Shown: positions 40,439-51,757 of the stretch, piece by piece
Layout: each line of letters starts with the position of its first letter
Numbering within the stretch: position 1 is the first letter of the stretch
Origin: Alphaproteobacteria bacterium
GTDB taxonomy: Bacteria > Pseudomonadota > Alphaproteobacteria > Bin95
Reading direction: 5' to 3'
NCBI GenBank assembly: GCA_965205265.1
Contig: CBDBGH010000003.1
Coordinates: forward strand, 4,128,001 to 4,192,000
DNA length: 64,000 nucleotides
Program-made: the position numbers and the translations under genes
The notes under the pieces: generated by a model
Told to the model about the DNA's origin: nothing
Database searches by the model: none
What the model saw: only the letters and a program-made list of their open reading frames with translations

Positions 40439-42354
40439 CCTGACTTCGACGGTTGATTCGCATAAGTAGTTGATATTGCCTGGTTCTCATTTCGGCTAGG
40501 CACTACATCCGGCATTTCTTCGAGCCGTGCTTCGTCGACGGTCAGGCGAGTTGATACGGGGTGATCGTCAGGGGCAGCCCCATGGTTGCGTAAATCTGCT
40601 CCGCCGCCGGTGTCGGCTTCGAGGGGATGACGTAGCGGTTGCCCGATTGCCGACAGCGCAGCAGGGAGCACTGGCGGTGGACGAGGGCGGAGCGGATGAC
40701 CTCCGGGGACATCCGCCGCTTCTGGATGGCGACGCGGTACGCAAGGTGTCGAACGCAGGCGAAGGCCAGGAAGGCGATGGCGATGTGAGCGCGGATCCGG
40801 TCCGGGTTCCAGTGCCAGATGGGACGTATCTTCAGGTCGTGTTTGGTGATCCGGAAGCTCTCCTCGACCTGCCAGAGCCCCTGGTAGTGAGCCATCACTT
40901 CGGTGACGCGCGCGTCGCGCAGATTGGTGATGACGCCGGTGAGCCCGTCCCATCGTGCGGCCTCGGCGATCTTCTCCGGGTTCACCGTGAGCCGTGCGTC
41001 GCCCTCGACGGCGATGAAGCGCTTCGCCCCGTGATTGGAGAGCAGTTCCCTGGGATTGTCGCTGCGGGCCAGCCTGTCGAGCAGGCGTTCCACCTGATGG
41101 CGGCGCTCGTGCGCGTCCTTGCGTGCGCGCTGGGGGCAGAAGACGACGATCAGGCGACGGCCCTTGTACTCCCACTCGCCGACCCGGCGGTCCTGTGAGC
41201 CCTCCAGCGGGGCATAGGTCCCGGGGTCGAGAACCTGCCCCAGCAGCGCGAGCGGCAGCTTGCGCAGCCGCGCGCCGACGACATACTCGCCGCCGATGGC
41301 GTCCATGGCGTCGAGGTTGTCGGCGCTCAGCATGCCCCGGTCGGCCACGCATACCGTGCGCTCCACCTGGTGGCGGCGCTGCATGTCCTGCAGGACCGGG
41401 ACCATGCTGTGTCCCTCGTAGGTGGCGCCGGGGAAGACCTCGTAGCTGATCGGCAGCCCTTCGCGCGTCACCATCAGCGCCAGCAGAACCTGCGAGTCCT
41501 TGTGTTTGCCGTCCTTGCTGAAGCCGTGCTGGCGAAGCTCGTCCTCGGCGGCCGTCTCGAAGTAGAGCGTGGTGCAATCGAAGAAGAGGATCGCGACCGG
41601 CTCCGGCAGCAGCGACCGGCTCGCCTCGCCGACGCGCGTGCGCAGTCGCTCGATCACCGTCGCGTCGAGCTGATCCATCATCCGGTAGACCTTCTCGAGC
41701 GGAAGACTCACGCCGAAGTCCTCCTCGAGCCGGCGCACGCTGCCCCGCTTGCTGTCGGGGTTGGCTACCCGCGCCATCACCACATGGAACAGCGCGTCAT
41801 GGGAGGCCCGGTAGCGCGAGCGCGGCAGCAGCGCGTCGAGGCCCAGCAGCCGGTAGATCTCGCCATAGACCTCGTGGATGCCTGTGATCAGGCGCTGCTC
41901 CTCTTCAAGCTGCTTGAGGTCGACCGGGAGTTCCTCCTTGCCGTCCCCCCGGCGGCCGACACGGATCGCCTGCTCAGCGATCTTCTCGGGCGCAAACAAT
42001 GCCGGCTGACGCTCGTCCTCCAGCTTCGCCTTGACGTACTCGCCGAGCTGCCTCAGGCGCTCGAGCTCGTCCTCGTCCATGGCCACGCCGACATGGCGGA
42101 CGATGCGCTGTCGGACCTTGCCGCCGTCGCGCACGGCCTCGACGATCTGGACCGAGCGTCGCGGGCTGTTGGGGGAGGTCTTGATGCGCACGAACATGGG
42201 GGGAGTGTAGCGCGTGGCGGAGGCATTGACAGTCTCAAAGATTTACTAGGCACTACAACGCAGCTTGACCGCACCGCAACTGCCAACTCATTGGCTTTAC
42301 TGAAAACTCCAGACGCGAGATCGGTCAGAAGTCAGCCCAACCGTCGAAGTCAGG
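40439..42354 (-). mobile_element. IS1634-family element, 17-bp perfect TIRs, 138-bp flanking direct repeat
   Basis: cctgacttcgacggttg (40439-40455) / caaccgtcgaagtcagg (42338-42354). Confidence 0.92.
40542..42197 (-). CDS. IS1634-family DDE transposase
   Basis: FFDCTTLYFE, GFSKD, VADRGM, WQVEESFR.K..L.IRPI.H. Confidence 0.93.
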   Translation of the reverse strand: MFVRIKTSPNSPRRSVQIVEAVRDGGKVRQRIVRHVGVAMDEDELERLRQLGEYVKAKLEDERQPALFAPEKIAEQAIRVGRRGDGKEELPVDLKQLEEEQRLITGIHEVYGEIYRLLGLDALLPRSRYRASHDALFHVVMARVANPDSKRGSVRRLEEDFGVSLPLEKVYRMMDQLDATVIERLRTRVGEASRSLLPEPVAILFFDCTTLYFETAAEDELRQHGFSKDGKHKDSQVLLALMVTREGLPISYEVFPGATYEGHSMVPVLQDMQRRHQVERTVCVADRGMLSADNLDAMDAIGGEYVVGARLRKLPLALLGQVLDPGTYAPLEGSQDRRVGEWEYKGRRLIVVFCPQRARKDAHERRHQVERLLDRLARSDNPRELLSNHGAKRFIAVEGDARLTVNPEKIAEAARWDGLTGVITNLRDARVTEVMAHYQGLWQVEESFRITKHDLKIRPIWHWNPDRIRAHIAIAFLAFACVRHLAYRVAIQKRRMSPEVIRSALVHRQCSLLRCRQSGNRYVIPSKPTPAAEQIYATMGLPLTITPYQLA

Positions 42355-44085: not shown

Positions 44086-44946
44086 ATGCCCGAACCCAGC
44101 GTTTGCCCCCGCCGGTCGTTCATCTTCACGCCGGGCCTGCGCCCCGATATGTATCCGAAAGCGCTTGCGACCGGGGCGGACATTGTCTGCGTCGAGCTTG
44201 AGGACGGGATCGCGCCCAAGGACAAGCCGGCCGCGCGCGCCAATACGATGAAGCTCTTCGAGAGCCCGCAGGCCGACGACGGGGTCGAGCGGGTCGTCCG
44301 CATCAACTCGCTGCGCGAGAGTTTCGGCATGGCGGACGTGCAGGCCGTGCTGGAGGCCGACACACCCCCGCCCGCGCTGATGCTGCCCAAGGTGCGCACG
44401 CCGGACGAGGTGGCGCTGCTCGACGACCTGCTGAGCGAACGCGGCCACGACACCCGCCTGCATGTCATCATCGAGACCAATGCCGGGCTCGAGGCCGCCT
44501 GGGACATCGCCCATTCGAGCCCGCGCATCGACGCCCTGTTCTTCGGCGGCGTGGACATGGCCGCGGAGCTTCGCTGCGAGAACGCATGGGAGCCGCTGCT
44601 CTACGCCCGCTCGCGCGTGGTCCATGCCGCCGCCGGCGCCGGACTGGACGCCATCGACGTGCCCTATCTGGACCTCGAGGACCCGGACGGCATGGAGCGC
44701 GCCGCAATTCAGGCGCGGGAGCTCGGCTTTTCCGGCAAGGGCGCGGTGCATCCCCGTCAGATCGCGGCGCTCAACGCCGTGTTCACGCCCTCGGCCGAAC
44801 GCATCGCGCGGGCGCGGCGCATCATCGCCGAGTTCGAGGCCGCCGACACGGGGCTGGTGGTGATCGACGGCAAGCTCATCGAGAAGCCGGTCCTGCGCGA
44901 GATGCACCGCATCGTCGCCATCGCCGACCGGACCGGCGCCGGATAG
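44086..44946 (+). CDS. CitE/HpcH-family CoA ester lyase
   Basis: RRSFIFTPG, ELEDG, VRIN, IIET, GKGAVHP. Confidence 0.9.
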   Translation: MPEPSVCPRRSFIFTPGLRPDMYPKALATGADIVCVELEDGIAPKDKPAARANTMKLFESPQADDGVERVVRINSLRESFGMADVQAVLEADTPPPALMLPKVRTPDEVALLDDLLSERGHDTRLHVIIETNAGLEAAWDIAHSSPRIDALFFGGVDMAAELRCENAWEPLLYARSRVVHAAAGAGLDAIDVPYLDLEDPDGMERAAIQARELGFSGKGAVHPRQIAALNAVFTPSAERIARARRIIAEFEAADTGLVVIDGKLIEKPVLREMHRIVAIADRTGAG

Positions 44947-45122
44947 GCGCCTGCGCCGTCGAAGCCGGGCCGGGCGCCGAAGACAGGCGGCTGGGAGCCT
45001 CCCGTCCCGGGATATAGCAAGTGTCATAAGTCCTGGTTCTTATAGCAAAACGCTATAGCACAGCCCTTCGGACACTGAAACTTTCGTCTGCGAAACCGGA
45101 AGGATTCGCAAAGGCGAGCGTC

Positions 45123-45776
45123 GTGGATTCGAAGAATTTCCCCAAAGAGACATCCCCTCTTCTCCGGCGACTGGCAGTCGTCCTGAGTGGTTTCCTGATG
45201 ACGCTGGTCCTCCTGATGAGCAACGGAATCCAGTTCCTGGGTGGTAAGGCGCCGCTTCACGTTGTTCAGGAAGCCCGCGCCAACAGTGGAGACGGGGACG
45301 GCGATGGAGATGGAGATGGAGACGGAGACGGAGACGGAGACGGTGATGGGGACGGCGATGGAGATGGAGATGGAGACGGAGACGGCGACGGAGATGGAGA
45401 CGGAGATGGAGACGGAGACGGAGACGGAGACGGTGATGGGGACGGCGATGGAGACGGAGACGGAGACGGTGATGGGGACGGCGATGGAGATGGAGATGGA
45501 GACGGAGACGGCGACGGTGATGGGGACGGCGATGGAGACGGAGACGGCGATGGGGACGGCGATGGAGATGGGGATGGAGACGGAGACGGCGATGGGGACG
45601 GCGATGGCGATGGAGACGGCGATGGAGACGGAGACGGCGACGGCGACGGCGACGGCGATGGGGACGGAGACGGCGATGGGGATGGCGATAGCGGGAGGGG
45701 TGGCGGTGGCGAGGAAGCGGGCGGCCGTTCTGGCGGCAGCGACCTTGCTGACAGCCTGCGCGGCGGGAGCTTCTGA
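45123..45776 (+). CDS. Exported/membrane-anchored protein with (Gly-Asp)67 tract
   Basis: Hydrophobic N-terminal segment, AxA site (ARA) just before the tract; repeat codons vary only as GGN-GAY. Confidence 0.75.
45288..45689 (+). repeat. 402-bp degenerate hexamer tandem repeat (GGNGAY)x67
   Basis: Read directly from the sequence. Confidence 0.95.
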
Positions 45777-45954
45777 GACCGGGGCAGTTCGGACCTGTCC
45801 GTCCCTGGTCGCATATTCTGCGGAGTTTCGGGAACGGGCCGCTGACGAGATCGAACGATTGCCCAGGGACTCCGCGGTCGTTGCAATGCTGGCGGACTAT
45901 GCTTCGATGAGACAACAGACACGCGCCTGTATCGGAAGCGAGGCGGACTCCTGA
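45706..45954 (+). CDS. Small lipoprotein (Rz1/o-spanin-like) overlapping the end of the GD gene
   Basis: RBS GGAGG 45694-45698, GTG start, lipobox LTAC, CP..V.YS...LP....LADY..R...RAC. Confidence 0.65.
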
Positions 45955-45980
45955 AAAACCGAGCCGGGGGAGGAAGGACA

Positions 45981-46610
45981 ATGGCCCGATACGGTTTCGC
46001 GCACCGAAGCGCCCGCTTCGCCAGGATCGCCGAGTGCGTGGATATCGCTCCGCTGCTGGAAGAGCTGGATGCGGGATCGGATATGTGGTCCGTGGACACA
46101 AGCCGCCAGCGGAAGGTCCGGTGCCAGCGCCACACCCGGAACATCTTCCTGCGAGCGCCGAAAAAACCCCTTCCGCCGGGCGCAAAGAACGCCAACGATG
46201 TCCATGAAAGCCGCCTCACGTCAGCGGCTGGCAGGTTTCCCCTTGCTTTGGCGTTCTGCGAGCGGGTCGCCGCCGAACTCGACGCGGAGCTCGGGCGGGC
46301 GACCCTGGTAACGCTGCTTCCGAAGAGCCGGGTCTACCCGCATGTCGATGCCGGAGCCTACTACCGGGTCCGGGACCGCCTGCATCTTGTGCTCAAGAGC
46401 CCGCAGGGAAGTCCGCTTACCGCCGGCGACGAGACCGTCGTCATGCGCGAGGGAGAGCTCTGGGCATTCGACAACAAGGCCCGGCATTTCGCCGACAATC
46501 CCTCCAGCAGGCCCCGCGTGCATCTGATTTTCGATGTCCTGCCGGCTCCGGGCCGCGGCTTCTACGCCTTGCCCCTTCCCGCCGGGAGCCCGCCATCGTT
46601 ACGCATTTGA
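45981..46610 (+). CDS. Aspartyl/asparaginyl beta-hydroxylase-family Fe(II)/2OG dioxygenase
   Basis: PHVD (HxD), [14 protein letters not shown]...H...[11 protein letters not shown]. Confidence 0.82.
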
Positions 46611-48161
46611 AGAGCGTCCGCCGAATTCCATCGGGCGGAGAACCTTGATCGCTGCCGCCAGGGCATGCGCCGCCGAGTCCACCCGCACCGCGTTGTCGTA
46701 AACTTCCGTTCGCAGCGCTCCCAGAACACGCTCCGGCCGGGCGACGTAGAACATGTCGCGCCAGTTCCGAAACTGGAGTTGCCCGAGCGACCTCAATCCG
46801 CGCCGGATGGCGCGCTCGTAAGCCGCCGCCCGTCGTTTTTCTCCGAGCGCGCGGGCAAGCGCCGCGGCGTCCGCCAGCCCTTCCAGATACGCCCCGGTGG
46901 AGGCGGCGTGCGGGGGACCGAACTCGGGACGGCGCGGATCGTAGAACCTGCCGCGCATGTCGGCCTCGAGTCCGTCCCACTGCTGCATCGGCAGGAGCCA
47001 GTCGTTCATCTCCAGAACGAAATCCGCAAATTCGCGGCGACCGGTCTGCGCGTACAATGACGCGCAAGCCTGCGTATGCCAGGGTACGAAGGCCGGGTTC
47101 CGTTTCCTGCGGTGCCTCTCGCGGCACCGCTCGAATGCCGCCTTGCAACGCTCGACGGTCGGCGCCAGCGGAAACCTTCGTCGAAGCGCCTCGGCCCAGA
47201 ACAGCAGCGCTTCGCCGGAATAGAAGTTCCAGTTCTCGCCGTCGCGCTCTGCCGGGAAGAAGAACGTGCGGAACCCAAGCTCGCTATGCACCAGCGAGTC
47301 GATGCCCGCCGTCAGCATGGCCAGCTCCTCCGCAAATTCTTCCCTTGCGGGGTTCTCCAGAATGGCCAGCCCCGCGAGCGCAGCAGCGCCGAGCTTCGCT
47401 CCGCTGCGTTCCACAATCGCGCCTCGGCCATCGCCGAGCGGCCGAAAATACCGGGCCAGATTGAAGCGGAGGTTCAGCCGCGCCGCTTCCCGGATTTCGG
47501 CGGAATCGCGCAGCTTCGCCAGACGGGCGAGCGCCAGAGACGCCAGGAAGCGGCGAAGGGCATTGTCTGCGGGCGATTCCTCGCCCCGGCTCGGCCAGTA
47601 TTTGTAGGGGAGCGCCCCGTCGGCATCGAGATTGCGAAGCATCCACTCGCCGATTCCGTCTGCGAGGTCCGCCGCGCGCTCGCCGTCGCCGGTCGCCGCG
47701 GCTTCGACCGGCGTCCCGCCGCGAAAGAGTTCCACGGGCGGACGCCCGCTCCCCGGAGGCAACAGATACTGCCTTGCGGCAAAGGACCGGAGGCCGCCTT
47801 CGGCCGCGAAGTCTTCGCGGCTGGCTCCTCGTTCTTCGAGAAACCTCTCGAGAGCGCGGTCGAAGCCGAGATTCGCCGCCAGCATGCGCGTCGGCGCGAG
47901 GCGGAGAAACGCGCCCCGGAATTCGATCTCCATCCCCACCAGGCCGCGGACGCGCGGATAAAAGACCCGCGCGAAACGCTTCTGCGCAACGCGCCGGAAG
48001 TTGCCGGCGACGCATACCTCAACCGCTTCGTCGGCGCGCGCGCCGACAAGCTTGCGCAGGTCCGCCAGCGCATCGCAATCGACCCAGCCGGCGCGGCGCG
48101 CCGCCCCGTTTCGACGAATGCAGAACCAGGTATCGCCGTCCGGGCTCCGCCGGGGGTTCAA
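46599..48161 (-). CDS. Hypothetical enzyme: possible AMMECR1-like N-domain plus alpha/alpha-toroid domain
   Basis: TTG start coupled to the LuxR stop with RBS GGAGG; motifs YKYWP..DNALR, KLGAAAL, FYSGEA, YLEG, RVD..H. Confidence 0.55.
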   Translation of the reverse strand: MNPRRSPDGDTWFCIRRNGAARRAGWVDCDALADLRKLVGARADEAVEVCVAGNFRRVAQKRFARVFYPRVRGLVGMEIEFRGAFLRLAPTRMLAANLGFDRALERFLEERGASREDFAAEGGLRSFAARQYLLPPGSGRPPVELFRGGTPVEAAATGDGERAADLADGIGEWMLRNLDADGALPYKYWPSRGEESPADNALRRFLASLALARLAKLRDSAEIREAARLNLRFNLARYFRPLGDGRGAIVERSGAKLGAAALAGLAILENPAREEFAEELAMLTAGIDSLVHSELGFRTFFFPAERDGENWNFYSGEALLFWAEALRRRFPLAPTVERCKAAFERCRERHRRKRNPAFVPWHTQACASLYAQTGRREFADFVLEMNDWLLPMQQWDGLEADMRGRFYDPRRPEFGPPHAASTGAYLEGLADAAALARALGEKRRAAAYERAIRRGLRSLGQLQFRNWRDMFYVARPERVLGALRTEVYDNAVRVDSAAHALAAAIKVLRPMEFGGRSSNA

Positions 48162-48651
48162 CCCGCCTCCCGCCCGCTGTCCGGCCCTTCCTCGCGAGGC
48201 GAAGAGTCGCTGGGAATGGACATGAGCAGCGGCTGAAGGATCTCGGCCACGAATTCCGCCCTCCCGCTGACGCCGGCCTTTGCATAGAGCGATGTGGCCT
48301 GCAATCGCGCGGTGCTTTCCTTGACTCCCCGGATCCTGGCAATCTCGGAGAAGCGGAACCCCTTGATGATGAACCAGGCAACGTCTCTTTCGCTGCGCGT
48401 CATCCGCCACTCGGCCATCCGCTCGTCGATGCTTTCTGCGAGCGCCGTGGAAAACAACCTGTTCCGGCGTTCTTCGCGATTCAGCCGCACACGCAAACGG
48501 CGCAGGTCCCTGAGGCCGAGGACAAGCGCTATCGATACGCCGATGAACACGACGAGTTCGGTGATGAAGTGGAACGACCCGTACTCGTCTTCGTACAACC
48601 AGTCCGCAACGAGGTCGTAGGCAAAGAACAGTATCGCGCATGCAAGCACGG
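48158..48651 (-). pseudogene. Membrane-anchored LuxR-family regulator, 3' part (interrupted by IS21)
   Basis: Two TM segments plus TRSERDVA..IKG...EIA..R.....LYAKAGVSGR HTH. Confidence 0.8.
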
Positions 48652-49033
48652 TGTCGGTGATTATCATAAAGGGCGCATATTTGCTGGCGTAGCGCGCTTT
48701 TGTGGTGCGCACGACAAACAGCGTGAGACAGGCGCGGCCGGGTTTATGACGGGGGCCGAGGACGGAAGGAGGGCGTAGCCCGACCGGAGTCCTCGGCCCC
48801 CGTCGCGTTGAGATTTTCGCCTCCCGGAGGGCGGCGACGTCCTGGCGACCGGGTTGGCCGTTCCCGGGCTGCGGCAGGGGGTAGACTGGGGCTTCTGAGA
48901 ACGATGCGGCGCCGGCCCCGTTGGCTTGGTGGCAACGACCGGCGCCGCACCCCCCGAGCCATGCAAGGCGCGGCCCGGAAGCGCAGTATCGTGCGCGTCC
49001 GGGCGTGGGTCCACCCCGTTCTCATCGGTCGCG

Positions 49034-49468
49034 ATGAGGAACGCCGCCCGCCTGTTCACCTGCGCCCTGTGCCGCCGCCAGGTGGTTCTCTGCCGGCGCT
49101 GCGACTCTGGCCATATCTACTGTTCGCCGCGTTGCAGCGGGCGGGCGCGGCGTCGGTCGGTGCGCCTTGCGGGGCAGCGCTACCAGAACAGCCGCCGGGG
49201 CCGTCACAAGCATGCCGAGCGCCAGCGGCGCTACCGCGAACGGCGCCGTGTGCGGCAGCCGGCAGTTCGGGCCATCGCGCAGAAAGTGACGCATCACCCT
49301 TTGACCGTCGCGCGCCGGCGTCCTGATGTGGCGCGCATACCGGCGGGGCGGTCCGGAACCCGGCCCTTCGGGCCCGACCGTCCCGCCCGGGTGTTCCGCT
49401 GCGAGCGCTGCGGTCGGTTCTGCGGCCTGGCGGTCTATCCGGGCCTGCGCCAGGCGCGAAGGGAGTGA
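49034..49468 (+). CDS. Cys-rich (Zn-finger-like) basic accessory protein upstream of istA
   Basis: CALC, CRRC, YCSPRC, CERCGRFC. Confidence 0.7.
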   Translation: MRNAARLFTCALCRRQVVLCRRCDSGHIYCSPRCSGRARRRSVRLAGQRYQNSRRGRHKHAERQRRYRERRRVRQPAVRAIAQKVTHHPLTVARRRPDVARIPAGRSGTRPFGPDRPARVFRCERCGRFCGLAVYPGLRQARRE

Positions 49469-49469
49469 G

Positions 49470-50975
49470 ATGGCGATCGACAAGCAGACCCGTGCCGAGA
49501 TCCAGCGGCTGTATTTTGCCGAGAAGTGGAGGATCGGCACGATCGCGCGCCAGCTCGGCGTCCACCACGGCACGGTCGAGCGCGCGGTAGCGGCCGCCGG
49601 GGCGCCCGCGCGTGAGAGGCGGCGCAGGGCTTCGATGATCGATCCGTTCCGGCCCTTCATCCGCCAGACCCTGGCGGTCTGGCCCAGGCTGCCAGCCAGC
49701 CGGCTCTACCAGATGGCGGTCGAGCGCGGCTACCGGGGCAGCCAGAGCCACTTCCGGCGCATGATCGCGCCGGAGCGCCCGCGGCCTGTGGCCGAGGCCT
49801 ATCTGCGCCTCAAGACCCTGCCCGGCGAGCTGGCCCAGGTGGACTGGGCCCACTTCGGCAAGGTGAGGATCGGGCGCGCGGAGCGCCCGCTGATGGGCTT
49901 CGTGATGGTGCTGAGCTACTCGCGCCGCATCTTCCTGCACTTCTACCTCAATGCCGCGATGGACAACTTCCTGCGCGGCCATGTCGAGGCCTTCGAGGCC
50001 TGGCAGGGCGTGCCCCGCGAGCTATGGTACGACAACCTGAAGAGCGTCGTGCTGGAGCGCCAGGGCGACGCCATCCGGTTCAACCCCCGGCTCCTCGACT
50101 TCGCCGCCCGCTACCGCTTCCTGCCCAAGCCGGTCGCGGTCGCGCGCGGCAACGAGAAGGGGCGCGTGGAGCGCGCCATACGCTATGTGCGCGACAACTT
50201 CTTCGCCGCCCGCGCCTGGCGCGACCTCGACGACCTGAACGCCCGGGCCCGCGCCTGGTGCGACGGCGTCGCCGCCGACCGTCGCTGGCCGGACGACCGC
50301 TCCCTCACCGTGCGCGAGGCCTTCGAGCGCGAGCGCGGCTCCCTGATGGCGCTGCCCGACGACCGGCCCCCCGTCGACGAGAGGGTCGAGGTCAGGATCG
50401 GCAAGACCCCCTACGCCAGGTTCGACCTCAATGACTATAGCGTCCCGCATACCCATACGCGGCGCACCCTCACCGTGGTCGCGACACTGGAGGAGGTACG
50501 CATCCTCGACGGCGCCGACACCGTCGCCCGTCATCCGCGCAGCTTCGACAAGGCGGCCCGCATCGAGACCCCCGAGCACATCGAGGAGCTGGTCAGGCTC
50601 AAACGTCACGCCCACCGCCTGCGCGGGCAGAGCCGCCTTCTCCAGGCCGCCCCCGACAGCGAGCGCCTGCTTGCCGAGACCGCCAGGCGCGGCGGCAATA
50701 TCGGCACAACCGTCGCCTCCCTGCTGCGCCTGCTCGACGACTACGGAGCCGTCGAACTCGAAGCCGCCATCGATGAAGCCCTTGAGCGCGGCGTCCCCCA
50801 TCCCAATGCGGTGCGCTTCAGCCTGAACCGGCGGCGCGAACAGCGCAACGAGCCACCACCCATCCCCATCGACCTGCCCGGCGATCCAAGACTGCGCGAT
50901 ATCGCGGTCCGCGATCACGACCTCGGCGGATACGACGGGCTCGCAAGCCACCACGAGGAGGACAGCGAAGAATGA
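49470..50975 (+). CDS. istA: IS21 transposase IstA
   Basis: N-terminal HTH, AQVDW, YDNLKS, KGRVER. Confidence 0.93.
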   Translation: MAIDKQTRAEIQRLYFAEKWRIGTIARQLGVHHGTVERAVAAAGAPARERRRRASMIDPFRPFIRQTLAVWPRLPASRLYQMAVERGYRGSQSHFRRMIAPERPRPVAEAYLRLKTLPGELAQVDWAHFGKVRIGRAERPLMGFVMVLSYSRRIFLHFYLNAAMDNFLRGHVEAFEAWQGVPRELWYDNLKSVVLERQGDAIRFNPRLLDFAARYRFLPKPVAVARGNEKGRVERAIRYVRDNFFAARAWRDLDDLNARARAWCDGVAADRRWPDDRSLTVREAFERERGSLMALPDDRPPVDERVEVRIGKTPYARFDLNDYSVPHTHTRRTLTVVATLEEVRILDGADTVARHPRSFDKAARIETPEHIEELVRLKRHAHRLRGQSRLLQAAPDSERLLAETARRGGNIGTTVASLLRLLDDYGAVELEAAIDEALERGVPHPNAVRFSLNRRREQRNEPPPIPIDLPGDPRLRDIAVRDHDLGGYDGLASHHEEDSEE

Positions 50976-51757
50976 CCCTCAAGGACCGCGCCACGGCGCT
51001 CGGACTGCACGGCCTCCTCGCCCACTGGAGCGAGGTTGCGGAGCGCGACTGGCTCCCGCCCCTGATCGCATGGGAAGAGGAAGAGAGGCGAAGCCGAAGC
51101 CTCAGGCGACGCCTCACCGCCGCCCGCCTCGGACAGTTCAAGCCGCTCGCCGACTTCGACTGGGACTGGCCAAGGCGATGCGACCGCATGGCCGTCGAGG
51201 ACCTCATGACCCTCAACTTCCTCCGCGAGGGCGCCAATGTCGTCCTCATCGGCCCCAACGGCGTCGGCAAGTCCACAATCGCCGCCAATATCGCACACCG
51301 CGCCGTCCTCGAAGGCCACACCGTGCGCTTCGCAACCGCCGCCAGCCTGCTCGGCGAGCTCGCCGCCATCGACTCCGACACAATGCTCCAGCGCAGGCTG
51401 CGCTTCTACGCCCGCCAGCACCTCCTGGTCATCGACGAAGTCGGATATCTCTCCTACTCCAACCGTCATGCCGACCTGCTGTTCAATATCGTCTCAAGCC
51501 GCAGCCAGCAGCGCTCCACCATCATCACCACAAACCGCCCCTTCGCCGAGTGGAGCGAGGCCTTCCCCAACGCCGCCTGCCTCGTGGCCCTTGTCGACCG
51601 GCTCGTCCACAATGCCGAGATCCTCGCCATCGACGGCGACTCATACCGCCGCAAGGAGGCCGAGGAACGCCAGAAGCAGCGCAGCGCCGATCGCCGCCGG
51701 CGGCGATCGGCAAAAGGAGCGGGCAAGAGCACGGCGCAAGACACGGGGGATGCCTGA
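50972..51757 (+). CDS. istB: IS21 AAA+ helper ATPase IstB
   Basis: [27 protein letters not shown]. Confidence 0.95.

Follow-up and report, generated by a model that had tools for sequence, protein, structure and literature searches.

A putative chimera between a Gly-Asp repeat protein and a phage spanin docking end in an alphaproteobacterial (GD)n/oxygenase/barrel module

Introduction

How does a bacterial gene encoding a long, pure glycine-aspartate polymer come to end like the inner-membrane subunit of a phage spanin, and to overlap an Rz1-like lipoprotein gene in another reading frame? The question is raised by a locus at positions 45,123 to 45,954 of a 64,000-nt stretch of the genome of an alphaproteobacterium of the Bin95 lineage (GenBank assembly GCA_965205265.1, contig CBDBGH010000003.1, positions 4,128,001 to 4,192,000 of the forward strand). 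This whole stretch is referred to as the window, and positions given without a locus name are window positions.

To our knowledge, spanins are known only as outer-membrane destroyers that end phage infection, or from lysis-type secretion. Two-component spanins, such as lambda Rz/Rz1 and T4 PseT.3/PseT.2, combine a type II inner-membrane protein (the i-spanin) with an outer-membrane lipoprotein (the o-spanin) encoded by overlapping genes, and the pair in the window is predicted to be built in the same way. A sequence-only reading of the locus had offered two explanations: a domesticated spanin pair whose coiled coil was replaced by a flexible acidic linker, or a chance fusion to a prophage remnant. 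Our comparative analysis points to a chimera, in which a member of a family of (GD)n/oxygenase/barrel loci captured the docking end of a spanin. We read the locus this way because the GD part appears to have a separate origin: the (GD)n/oxygenase/barrel module is more widespread, and spanin ends are found only in the window type. The union of a spanin docking module with this undescribed system is, as judged from sequence comparison, the main new point of this work.

Results

The GD gene and the overlapping lipoprotein gene

The GD gene (45123..45776, plus strand) encodes a protein of 217 amino acids (aa) and begins with GTG, where its orthologues have ATG at the equivalent position. The assignment was made from the open reading frame (ORF) and its translation, and the orthologues share the start region, the frame and the tail. 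From the N-terminus, the protein consists of a short basic stretch, a hydrophobic stretch, a GGK.P....QEA motif, (Gly-Asp)67, a Gly-rich linker and a spanin-type tail. The hydrophobic stretch (approximately residues 17-39, about 23 residues; 45171..45239, plus strand) is by inspection a predicted transmembrane (TM) anchor and is followed directly by the conserved motif. As judged by eye, K, K and RR precede it, giving the N-terminal TM segment and type II arrangement of an i-spanin; because these basic residues stand before the hydrophobic stretch, the anchor is expected to lie N-in, C-out.

The (Gly-Asp)67 tract (45288..45689, plus strand) is an uninterrupted run of 134 codons of the form GGN GAY, detected by Tandem Repeats Finder at periods of 12 and 42. 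Only six codon types are used (GGA, GGC, GGG, GGT, GAC and GAT) and no residue other than Gly or Asp occurs across the 134 codons, so that the DNA variation in the repeat is wholly synonymous in the GD frame. Of the alternative frames, +1 would encode six different residues and +2 contains four stops. The pattern argues that the tract is translated and selected for pure (GD)n and is not a non-coding microsatellite. Orthologues in four other species of the genus carry 24, 71, 84 and 72 GD units while retaining the anchor, the frame and the tail, and across all relatives the copy number ranges from 24 to 152, the latter in metagenome relatives. Two database matches to the protein were set aside: a Pfam match of the tract to TrAA12 is compositional, and matches to the MSCRAMM Ser-Asp adhesins (SdrC/D, ClfA/B) reach 51-58 bits in NCBIfam against cutoffs of 999-2500 and reflect low complexity only.

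The helical or coiled-coil periplasmic domain of spanins is absent from the GD protein, and (GD)67 with the Gly-rich linker stands in its place. Linker and tail together make up the last 28 residues (45690..45773, plus strand; stop 45774-45776), of which the final 11 (45741-45773) form an i-spanin-type C-terminal motif. Eight of these 11 residues (D30, L31, A32, D33, L35, R36, G38 and F40 of an alignment of 100 tails, A3) agree with the consensus DLADRLRDGRF, so the similarity to partner genes on which the sequence-only reading had staked its proposal is present.

The o-spanin-type lipoprotein gene (45706..45954, plus strand; mature part 45757-45951, stop 45952-45954) overlaps the GD gene in the +2 frame. 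Its GTG start at 45706, preceded at 7 nt by a Shine-Dalgarno (SD) sequence GGAGG at 45694-45698, gives a product of 82 aa; an alternative ATG at 45682 would give 90 aa. A long 'ETAM' ORF at 45241-45954 is an artefact of the repeat lying upstream of the true lipoprotein start. The lipobox, judged by eye, reads LLTA followed by the Cys encoded at 45757, with Ala and not Asp at +2, and two further Cys follow. Absence of Asp at +2 is the enterobacterial rule for outer-membrane sorting, and under that rule the lipobox and the Ala together mark the product as a candidate outer-membrane o-spanin. The earlier description of an 82-aa lipoprotein in another frame of the GD gene, with its own ribosome-binding site, lipobox and two further Cys, was correct in every detail that could be checked.

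The lipoprotein is single-copy in the window's genome. It has no family in Pfam and matches phrog_26778 in PHROGs (E 5.3e-17). In an alignment of 100 homologues (A2), C1, C14, P15, Y20, A28 and R52 are invariant and C58 is present in at least 90% of sequences; the window lipoprotein retains all six invariant residues. The ratio of nonsynonymous to synonymous substitution rates (dN/dS) among the GD-type orthologues is 0.15-0.59. An AlphaFold2 (AF2) model with a mean predicted local distance difference test (pLDDT) score of 82.6 has flexible residues 1-21 and helices at 22-33 and 40-64. In a quick tree of 102 rows and few columns, the six GD-type lipoproteins cluster together, on a long branch, with a Shimodaira-Hasegawa-like approximate likelihood ratio test (SH-aLRT) value of 92. 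Prediction of a complex between the mature lipoprotein (A2) and the 40-residue tail (A3) scored 0.23 against a mark of 0.32; this run was made without controls and is counted neither way.

Other searches with the lipoprotein returned little. A homologous-protein search gave no match, probably because small overlapped genes are rarely called, Foldseek of the model against BFVD gave a best E of 2.4 and nothing usable, and a PDB sequence search returned designed helical proteins only. An Rfam scan of 44800-46100 gave no match, and a promoter scan found no sites, with two terminator-like sites on the minus strand that are within chance expectation. Among the sequencing runs listed for the locus, none was of RNA.

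Relatives of the pair in prophages and phages

To place the lipoprotein, an alignment of six lipoproteins (A1) was used to scan species-representative genomes and viral contigs, which yielded 101 relatives in the genomes (80 kept) and 49 in the viral contigs. The resulting lipoprotein-centred set comprises 129 loci, 3 of which are GD-type and 126 non-GD. In 111 loci (99 distinct pairs) the upstream ORF has its stop exactly 17 nt beyond the first base of the Cys codon in the lipobox, and the window pair is arranged identically (Cys codon 45757, stop 45774). The upstream partner is almost always a protein of about 85 residues with a TM segment and a single helical stretch, ending ..DLADRLRDGRF. 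The helical segment of this canonical partner carries ..AERLETSEKTNDVQRQMLDAAARR.., which is replaced in the window protein, and the N-terminal anchor of the window protein is not homologous to that of the canonical partner; the C-terminal tail and the lipoprotein are homologous.

These relatives lie in lysis cassettes, as the sequence-only reading had stated for alphaproteobacterial prophages. Among non-GD loci with at least 1200 nt of upstream sequence, 98 of 114 have an M15 peptidase or a CRP-235-type lysozyme gene on the same strand within 1.5 kb; the raw counts over all 129 loci are 103 for M15 and 85 for DUF6127. Pfam analysis of three loci identified prophages, with portal, ClpP, capsid and connector or tail J genes followed by DUF6127, Peptidase_M15_3 and the pair at the prophage end. 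A tblastn search with the lipoprotein matched four phage records. In Rhizobium phage RHph_I20 and Roseobacter phage CRP-235, a lysozyme gene and genes for small membrane proteins precede the pair, and the TM protein before the lipoprotein homologue ends ..ALRDGLF or ..RLRRDGL.

The pair has no Cys in the membrane protein and two in the lipoprotein. This 0/2 pattern, shared with the T4-type spanins, is the commonest among the 528 curated spanin pairs covered in the passages of PMC6139136 drawn on here, in which at least one periplasmic Cys is expected of a spanin pair. PHROGs labels phrog_26778 'unknown function'; the spanin label used here comes from context, and we assign the lipoprotein and its upstream TM protein to a spanin family because of that context and the architecture of the pair. 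On these grounds, the tail and the lipoprotein of the window very probably share spanin ancestry.

Some further features of this family were observed. The phrog_26778 lipoprotein and the approximately 85-aa ..DLADRLRDGRF protein form an overlapped pair that ends one type of prophage across many alphaproteobacterial families (loci L017-L145; for example L032:5974-6228 and L014:9782-10078), and identical lipoproteins occur in distant hosts, such as a Paracoccus sp. and Altererythrobacter palmitatis. In 85 of the 129 loci the DUF6127 gene lies directly ahead of the Peptidase_M15_3 endolysin gene (L032:4709-5062, L014:10945-11235), making it by position a candidate holin or lysis regulator. The spanins of Cobavirus were considered as relatives and rejected, being unimolecular and unrelated according to the part of PMC6775973 consulted. 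In the open-access literature, we found no paper on the phrog_26778-type spanin family or on bacterial (GD)n proteins.

The (GD)n/oxygenase/barrel module

Downstream of the pair, the window encodes a PF05118 oxygenase of the aspartyl/asparaginyl beta-hydroxylase family and, convergently, a 520-aa protein with an (alpha/alpha)6 barrel, both described below. Oxygenase orthologues (E <1e-100) are confined, among the 41 relatives searched, to the five genomes of the genus that have the GD pair. Oxygenase homologues at E 1e-10 or better number 481 in the protein database; among the 120 listed, two, from a Defluviicoccus sp. and a Rhodospirillales bacterium, are named by their source as 'aspartyl/asparaginyl beta-hydroxylase domain-containing protein'. 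Metagenome contigs were scanned with an alignment of 23 oxygenase sequences (A4), not with the lipoprotein, which returned 58 loci, 38 of them at 60% identity or more. A same-strand upstream ORF with at least 8 and up to 152 GD units is present in 33 of the 38, and the five loci without one have just 0, 288, 307, 321 and 854 nt of upstream sequence. The barrel gene abuts the oxygenase gene convergently in 36 of the 38, with the two misses ending inside the oxygenase gene, and a gene for a membrane helix-turn-helix (HTH) protein accompanies the module in 17. Because near-duplicates are common in this set, the loci are less independent than the counts suggest. The remaining 20 loci hold oxygenase homologues of 33-55% identity (ten with at least 1200 nt upstream), and not one of them has an adjacent GD gene; several of these homologues adjoin ABC-transporter genes, and we place them in another subfamily, outside the module. 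In a class-wide search of 401 genomes, oxygenase orthologues were found in two other families: in genome G143 (oxygenase 70% identity) a lipobox-(GD)46-domain protein is encoded upstream, and in G391 (63%) a GD tract lies at the contig edge.

The (GD)n proteins of the module have about 14 end architectures, all with an anchor or a lipobox, and spanin ends occur only in the window type (metagenome loci L158, L160 and L161). A second group (L162/163, L180/182, L191) has the same anchor and GGK.P...QEA motif with neither tail nor lipoprotein. Consistent with this, the N-terminal 55 aa of the window protein match only 3 of the 129 lipoprotein-centred loci, all GD-type, and also match the spanin-less GD proteins of L162/163 (70%) and L191 (49%). 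Further types consist of a lipobox, (GD)n and a C-terminal domain of about 200-230 residues (L164-168), a lipobox, (GD)n and a B_lectin domain (L169-173), or a lipobox with (GD)127-133 alone (L175-177), and in others (GD)n precedes RTX repeats (L192) or stands at the C-terminus of a large secreted protein (L174). In three loci (L184:324-1826, L186:2969-4588 and L212:2969-4348) a lipobox protein with (GD)24-50 and poly-Asp is joined in frame to the oxygenase by a hydrophobic stretch of 19 residues, presumably a natural fusion of substrate and enzyme. Single examples of these types are L192:1-654 with RTX calcium-binding repeats, L170:2959-3921 with B_lectin and L164:1303-2955 with the C-terminal domain. 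The last of these domains ends ..GAAG.FERDRLRG.FG.. and has no family match; it may resemble the surface-lipoprotein barrels of the TbpB/fHbp type.

Taken together, the window locus can be placed in the GD/oxygenase/barrel module with high confidence, and the module itself appears to recur across Alphaproteobacteria and to have gone undescribed so far.

Enzymes of the module

The oxygenase gene (45981..46610, plus strand) encodes 209 aa and scores 64.3 bits against the PF05118 cutoff of 22.6 for Fe(II)/2-oxoglutarate (2OG) oxygenases. H121, D123, H169 and H181 are invariant in the 23 sequences of A4, giving the H-x-D...H metal-binding pattern in which one of the two distal His would bind iron. 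The protein has no signal peptide and is basic (median isoelectric point (pI) 9.63).

The convergent 520-aa protein (46599..48161, minus strand) has an N-terminal alpha/beta domain and an (alpha/alpha)6 barrel in its AF2 model (pLDDT 82.9, predicted template modelling score (pTM) 0.83). No Pfam family was matched even at E<=5. Its start was taken from a 4-nt overlap with the HTH gene observed in locus L011. Foldseek matches to the model (best E 2.7e-6) are to class II terpene cyclases, GH76 and AGE-type epimerases; these are generic to (alpha/alpha)6 folds, and no functional assignment was made from them. Look-alikes in the ESM Atlas are of the six-hairpin, C5-epimerase_C type (score 0.94) and are a lead only. 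The barrel protein is also basic (median pI 9.31).

The gene next to the barrel gene (48158..48712, minus strand) encodes 184 aa, including two hydrophobic segments and a weakly matching HTH of the LuxR/GerE type (Pfam GerE, E 0.029 only). It is upstream of the barrel gene in a shared operon, translationally coupled to it, and conserved in all five genus loci, and may encode a membrane-bound one-component regulator of the module.

We slightly favor the GD tract as the substrate of the oxygenase, because the two are linked across unrelated architectures and fused in frame, the enzymes are basic, and the C-beta of Asp is practically the sole side-chain target that the tract offers. As the enzymes have no signal peptide while the tract is exported, such a modification would have to come before export.

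Chromosomal setting

The GD, lipoprotein and oxygenase genes lie on one strand and face the membrane HTH gene followed by the 520-aa gene, forming a five-gene block. The block is kept as a unit in 5 of 17 genus genomes, the GD-gene orthologues being in G003, G006, G010 and G016, in three different flank contexts. In G016 it lies between CobS/CobT genes and enoyl-CoA hydratase and sarcosine oxidase genes, in G003 between DegP with a two-component system and amidohydrolase/HisD genes, and in G006, G010 and the window near HpcH and NadE. Upstream of the GD gene, the window has an insertion sequence (IS) transposase gene at 40542-42197 and genes for an HTH regulator, a phosphonate-binding-type protein and an HpcH aldolase; downstream, the three module genes are followed by an IS21 pair at 49326-51757. 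The transposase gene (minus strand) is of the DDE_Tnp_1 type, the IS21-type pair (plus strand) consists of Mu-transposase C-terminal/rve and IstB genes, and the module lies within the 7-kb segment bracketed by the two. In G010, the final 38 codons of NAD synthetase are present a second time just upstream of the GD gene (L011:10747-10860), with the full gene across the module; the extra copy looks like a rearrangement or insertion scar.

No lysin or phage genes were found in the 64,000-nt window, in agreement with the earlier statement that none lie near the pair. A holin/endolysin cassette is absent from the window locus and from the orthologous loci, and the flanks of G016, G003 and G010 hold no phage genes. 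A search of the window's genome (98.98% complete) with the L032 query did not find the canonical M15 partner.

Discussion

The simplest history compatible with these sequences would be a single capture, in which the 3' end of a prophage i-spanin gene, and with it the overlapping o-spanin gene, passed to a GD gene. The opposite course, growth of a repeat inside a spanin, is less likely. The proposal of a domesticated spanin with an acidic linker therefore survives in part: the tail and the lipoprotein are spanin-homologous, but the linker did not grow inside a spanin, as the anchor, (GD)n, oxygenase and barrel protein belong to a separate and wider family.

What would such a chimera do? Its position in a conserved, phage-free module with a hydroxylase-type enzyme leads us to favor an envelope tether over a lysis device, and we consider a non-lytic, probably modified, polyanionic tether between the inner and outer membranes to be somewhat more probable than not. 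The signal-anchor would fix the GD protein in the inner membrane, and a polyanionic chain of about 178 residues would occupy the periplasm. The tail (..L.D.LR.G.F) would dock on the lipoprotein of the outer membrane, in the way that spanin subunits join through their C-termini, and so complete a flexible tether. Having no coiled coil, holin or endolysin, the pair would be out of lysis work, and loss of the coiled coil would presumably have cost it its fusogenic function. The oxygenase and then the barrel enzyme would most likely modify Asp residues of the tract before export, to beta-hydroxy-Asp or a derivative, and the product may be a metal- or cation-binding polymer. The topology of the GD protein, the binding of its tail to the lipoprotein, the modification of Asp and the physiological role of the protein are all deduced from sequence here.

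At 0.36-0.38 nm per residue, the contour length of a chain of about 178 residues is approximately 65 nm, and the periplasm is about 25 nm wide. A 67-unit chain would accordingly be long enough to cross it even as a swollen coil, while the 24-unit orthologue (approximately 34 nm contour) could do so only if stretched. Two-point anchoring of a polyanion seems to recur in the module, as the GD proteins of L184, L186 and L212 combine a lipobox with a hydrophobic segment at the opposite end. The polymer may buffer cations or metals, space the two membranes or sense how far apart they are, or serve as a scaffold. A more specific version, which we put forward tentatively and hold to be doubtful, is a periplasm-spanning cable of modified poly(Gly-Asp), which the oxygenase and the barrel enzyme would make, for example as poly(Gly-beta-hydroxy-Asp) or a product processed beyond it, clamped between the two membranes through a phage spanin interface, with the copy number of 24-152 tuning its reach or ion capacity.

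A number of observations weigh against a modified tether. Some concern the enzyme step. LpxO/OlsC-type lipid hydroxylases fall in the same Pfam family, PF05118. Searched against the PDB, the oxygenase profile finds free L-proline hydroxylases first (E 7e-6 and 2.5e-4) and human AspH at 6e-4 to 2e-3; being about equally near to both, its homology leaves the substrate unfixed. Weak NCBIfam matches are to LpxO (E 0.004) and a non-proteinogenic amino-acid hydroxylase, and neither the oxygenase nor the barrel protein has a signal peptide although the GD tract is exported. The barrel protein also occurs alone in genome G002 (L156, G002:C380; 72% identical), where the 4.5 kb examined around it holds no oxygenase, GD or membrane HTH gene. 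The other points concern the tail. Its homology spans only about 11 residues, the same DNA encodes the signal peptide of the lipoprotein, so that conservation of the tail is not assignable to one frame, and the closest GD proteins (L162/163, L180/182 and L191) have neither tail nor lipoprotein, from which it follows that docking may be dispensable. Finally, the genus genomes are related to one another and, with the near-duplicate metagenome loci, do not provide independent counts.

The enzyme-related points leave room for an alternative in which the oxygenase does not act on the tract and hydroxylates an envelope lipid or a small molecule, in the manner of LpxO/OlsC or of the proline hydroxylases to which its best PDB relatives belong, with the GD proteins as co-regulated partners in a single adaptation of the envelope. 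This alternative touches the enzyme step only and is compatible with a tether; we regard it as unlikely, though the strongest of the competing explanations. A cytoplasmic enzyme and an exported tract would fit it. Against it stand the linkage of the oxygenase to (GD)n over some 14 otherwise unrelated architectures and three families, including the in-frame fusion, the basic character of the two enzymes, which would suit them to bind a polyanion, and a tract in which Asp C-beta is essentially the only side-chain target. Cascades of an oxygenase and a second enzyme acting on peptide Asp are also known. As described in the passages of PMC12186529 consulted, the Fe/2OG oxygenase SmaO makes beta-hydroxy-Asp in SmaA, the precursor of a peptide made on ribosomes and modified after translation (RiPP), and a second enzyme, SmaX, processes the product further. 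The window resembles this system in having an oxygenase with a partner enzyme, and SmaO is a precedent for action on ribosomal Asp residues. It differs in that SmaA is a short, leader-dependent peptide and SmaX an HD-domain enzyme, while the window has a 134-residue polymer and an (alpha/alpha)6 barrel. Those passages do not state that SmaO belongs to PF05118.

The shortness of the tail similarity, its confounding by the overlapping signal-peptide frame, and the nearest GD relatives that end without tail or lipoprotein would suit a plainer explanation. The GD protein could be an inner-membrane-anchored periplasmic polyanion whose tail is a leftover and whose lipoprotein is idle or independent, with no trans-envelope tether. 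We find this improbable, since the tail motif, the overlap geometry and the lipoprotein are retained in five species and three metagenome contigs, the lipoprotein has a dN/dS below 1 with all six invariant residues kept, and other architectures, such as those of L184, L186 and L212, are likewise anchored at both ends.

A decaying prophage remnant joined by chance to a repeat gene, with tail and lipoprotein non-functional, was the second explanation offered by the sequence-only reading. The flanking IS elements and the lack of other phage genes in the window are what one would expect of it. It is nonetheless very unlikely: the ORFs are intact, with no stops or frameshifts, in the same arrangement in five species with different flanks, and both the substitution ratios and the preserved SD sequence and lipobox speak against decay, so we set the idea of a chance fusion aside. 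Least likely of all is a still-working spanin serving a prophage, gene transfer agent or lysis-type secretion system encoded elsewhere, with the GD tract as an unusual spacer, because, although both membrane signals and the docking tail are intact and spanins do serve outside phage lysis in type 10 secretion (PMC10847048, in the part consulted), the helical periplasmic domain of all canonical relatives is gone, no holin or endolysin gene is nearby, the M15 partner was not found in the genome, and the pair is locked into an oxygenase/barrel module otherwise unrelated to lysis.

If a polyanionic tether is accepted as the favored reading, it has partial parallels in several envelope systems. Braun's lipoprotein Lpp is a rigid trimeric coiled coil that joins the outer membrane to peptidoglycan. 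The putative tether would resemble it as a periplasm-spanning protein that extends from a lipid anchor and could, through its length, fix or report the distance between the membranes; unlike Lpp, it would be a disordered polyanion of 24-152 repeats running from the inner membrane to an outer-membrane lipoprotein. The staphylococcal Ser-Asp repeat (SDR) proteins are Gram-positive wall-anchored adhesins whose Ser residues are glycosylated, with the SdgA/SdgB glycosyltransferases encoded adjacently. They share with the window a long, pure, Asp-containing dipeptide repeat in an envelope protein and modifying enzymes encoded alongside, modification being presumptive for the window. In contrast to them, the window repeat is Gly-Asp and not Ser-Asp, and neither Gram-positive wall anchoring nor Ser glycosylation is involved.

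With respect to spanins, the window differs from the canonical pairs in carrying (GD)67 in place of the coiled coil and in being linked, in the absence of holin, endolysin and prophage, to an oxygenase and a barrel enzyme. Comparable cases, in which a host keeps spanin genes for a non-phage purpose, are type 10 secretion systems and the lysis module of the defective prophage DLP12. As far as the consulted parts of PMC10847048 and PMC7918800 describe them, those cassettes retain a holin, an endolysin and a canonical spanin and act through controlled lysis or vesiculation. The window, in contrast, retains only the docking end and the o-spanin.

For the prophages, these results mean that phrog_26778 and the adjacent ..DLADRLRDGRF membrane proteins can be annotated as an o-/i-spanin pair in more than 100 prophages. 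For the bacteria, the locus is an entry point to an undescribed (GD)n/oxygenase/barrel module and, probably, to a new protein modification. If the tether reading is true, the locus would be a clear case in which a lysis interface was exapted to build an envelope structure: the host keeps it with no lysin, mounted on a pure polyanion. Under the more specific and doubtful cable version, the polymer would also belong to a new class of envelope polymers, modified and either structural or metal-binding, and spanin parts would here be reused outside lysis for the first time.

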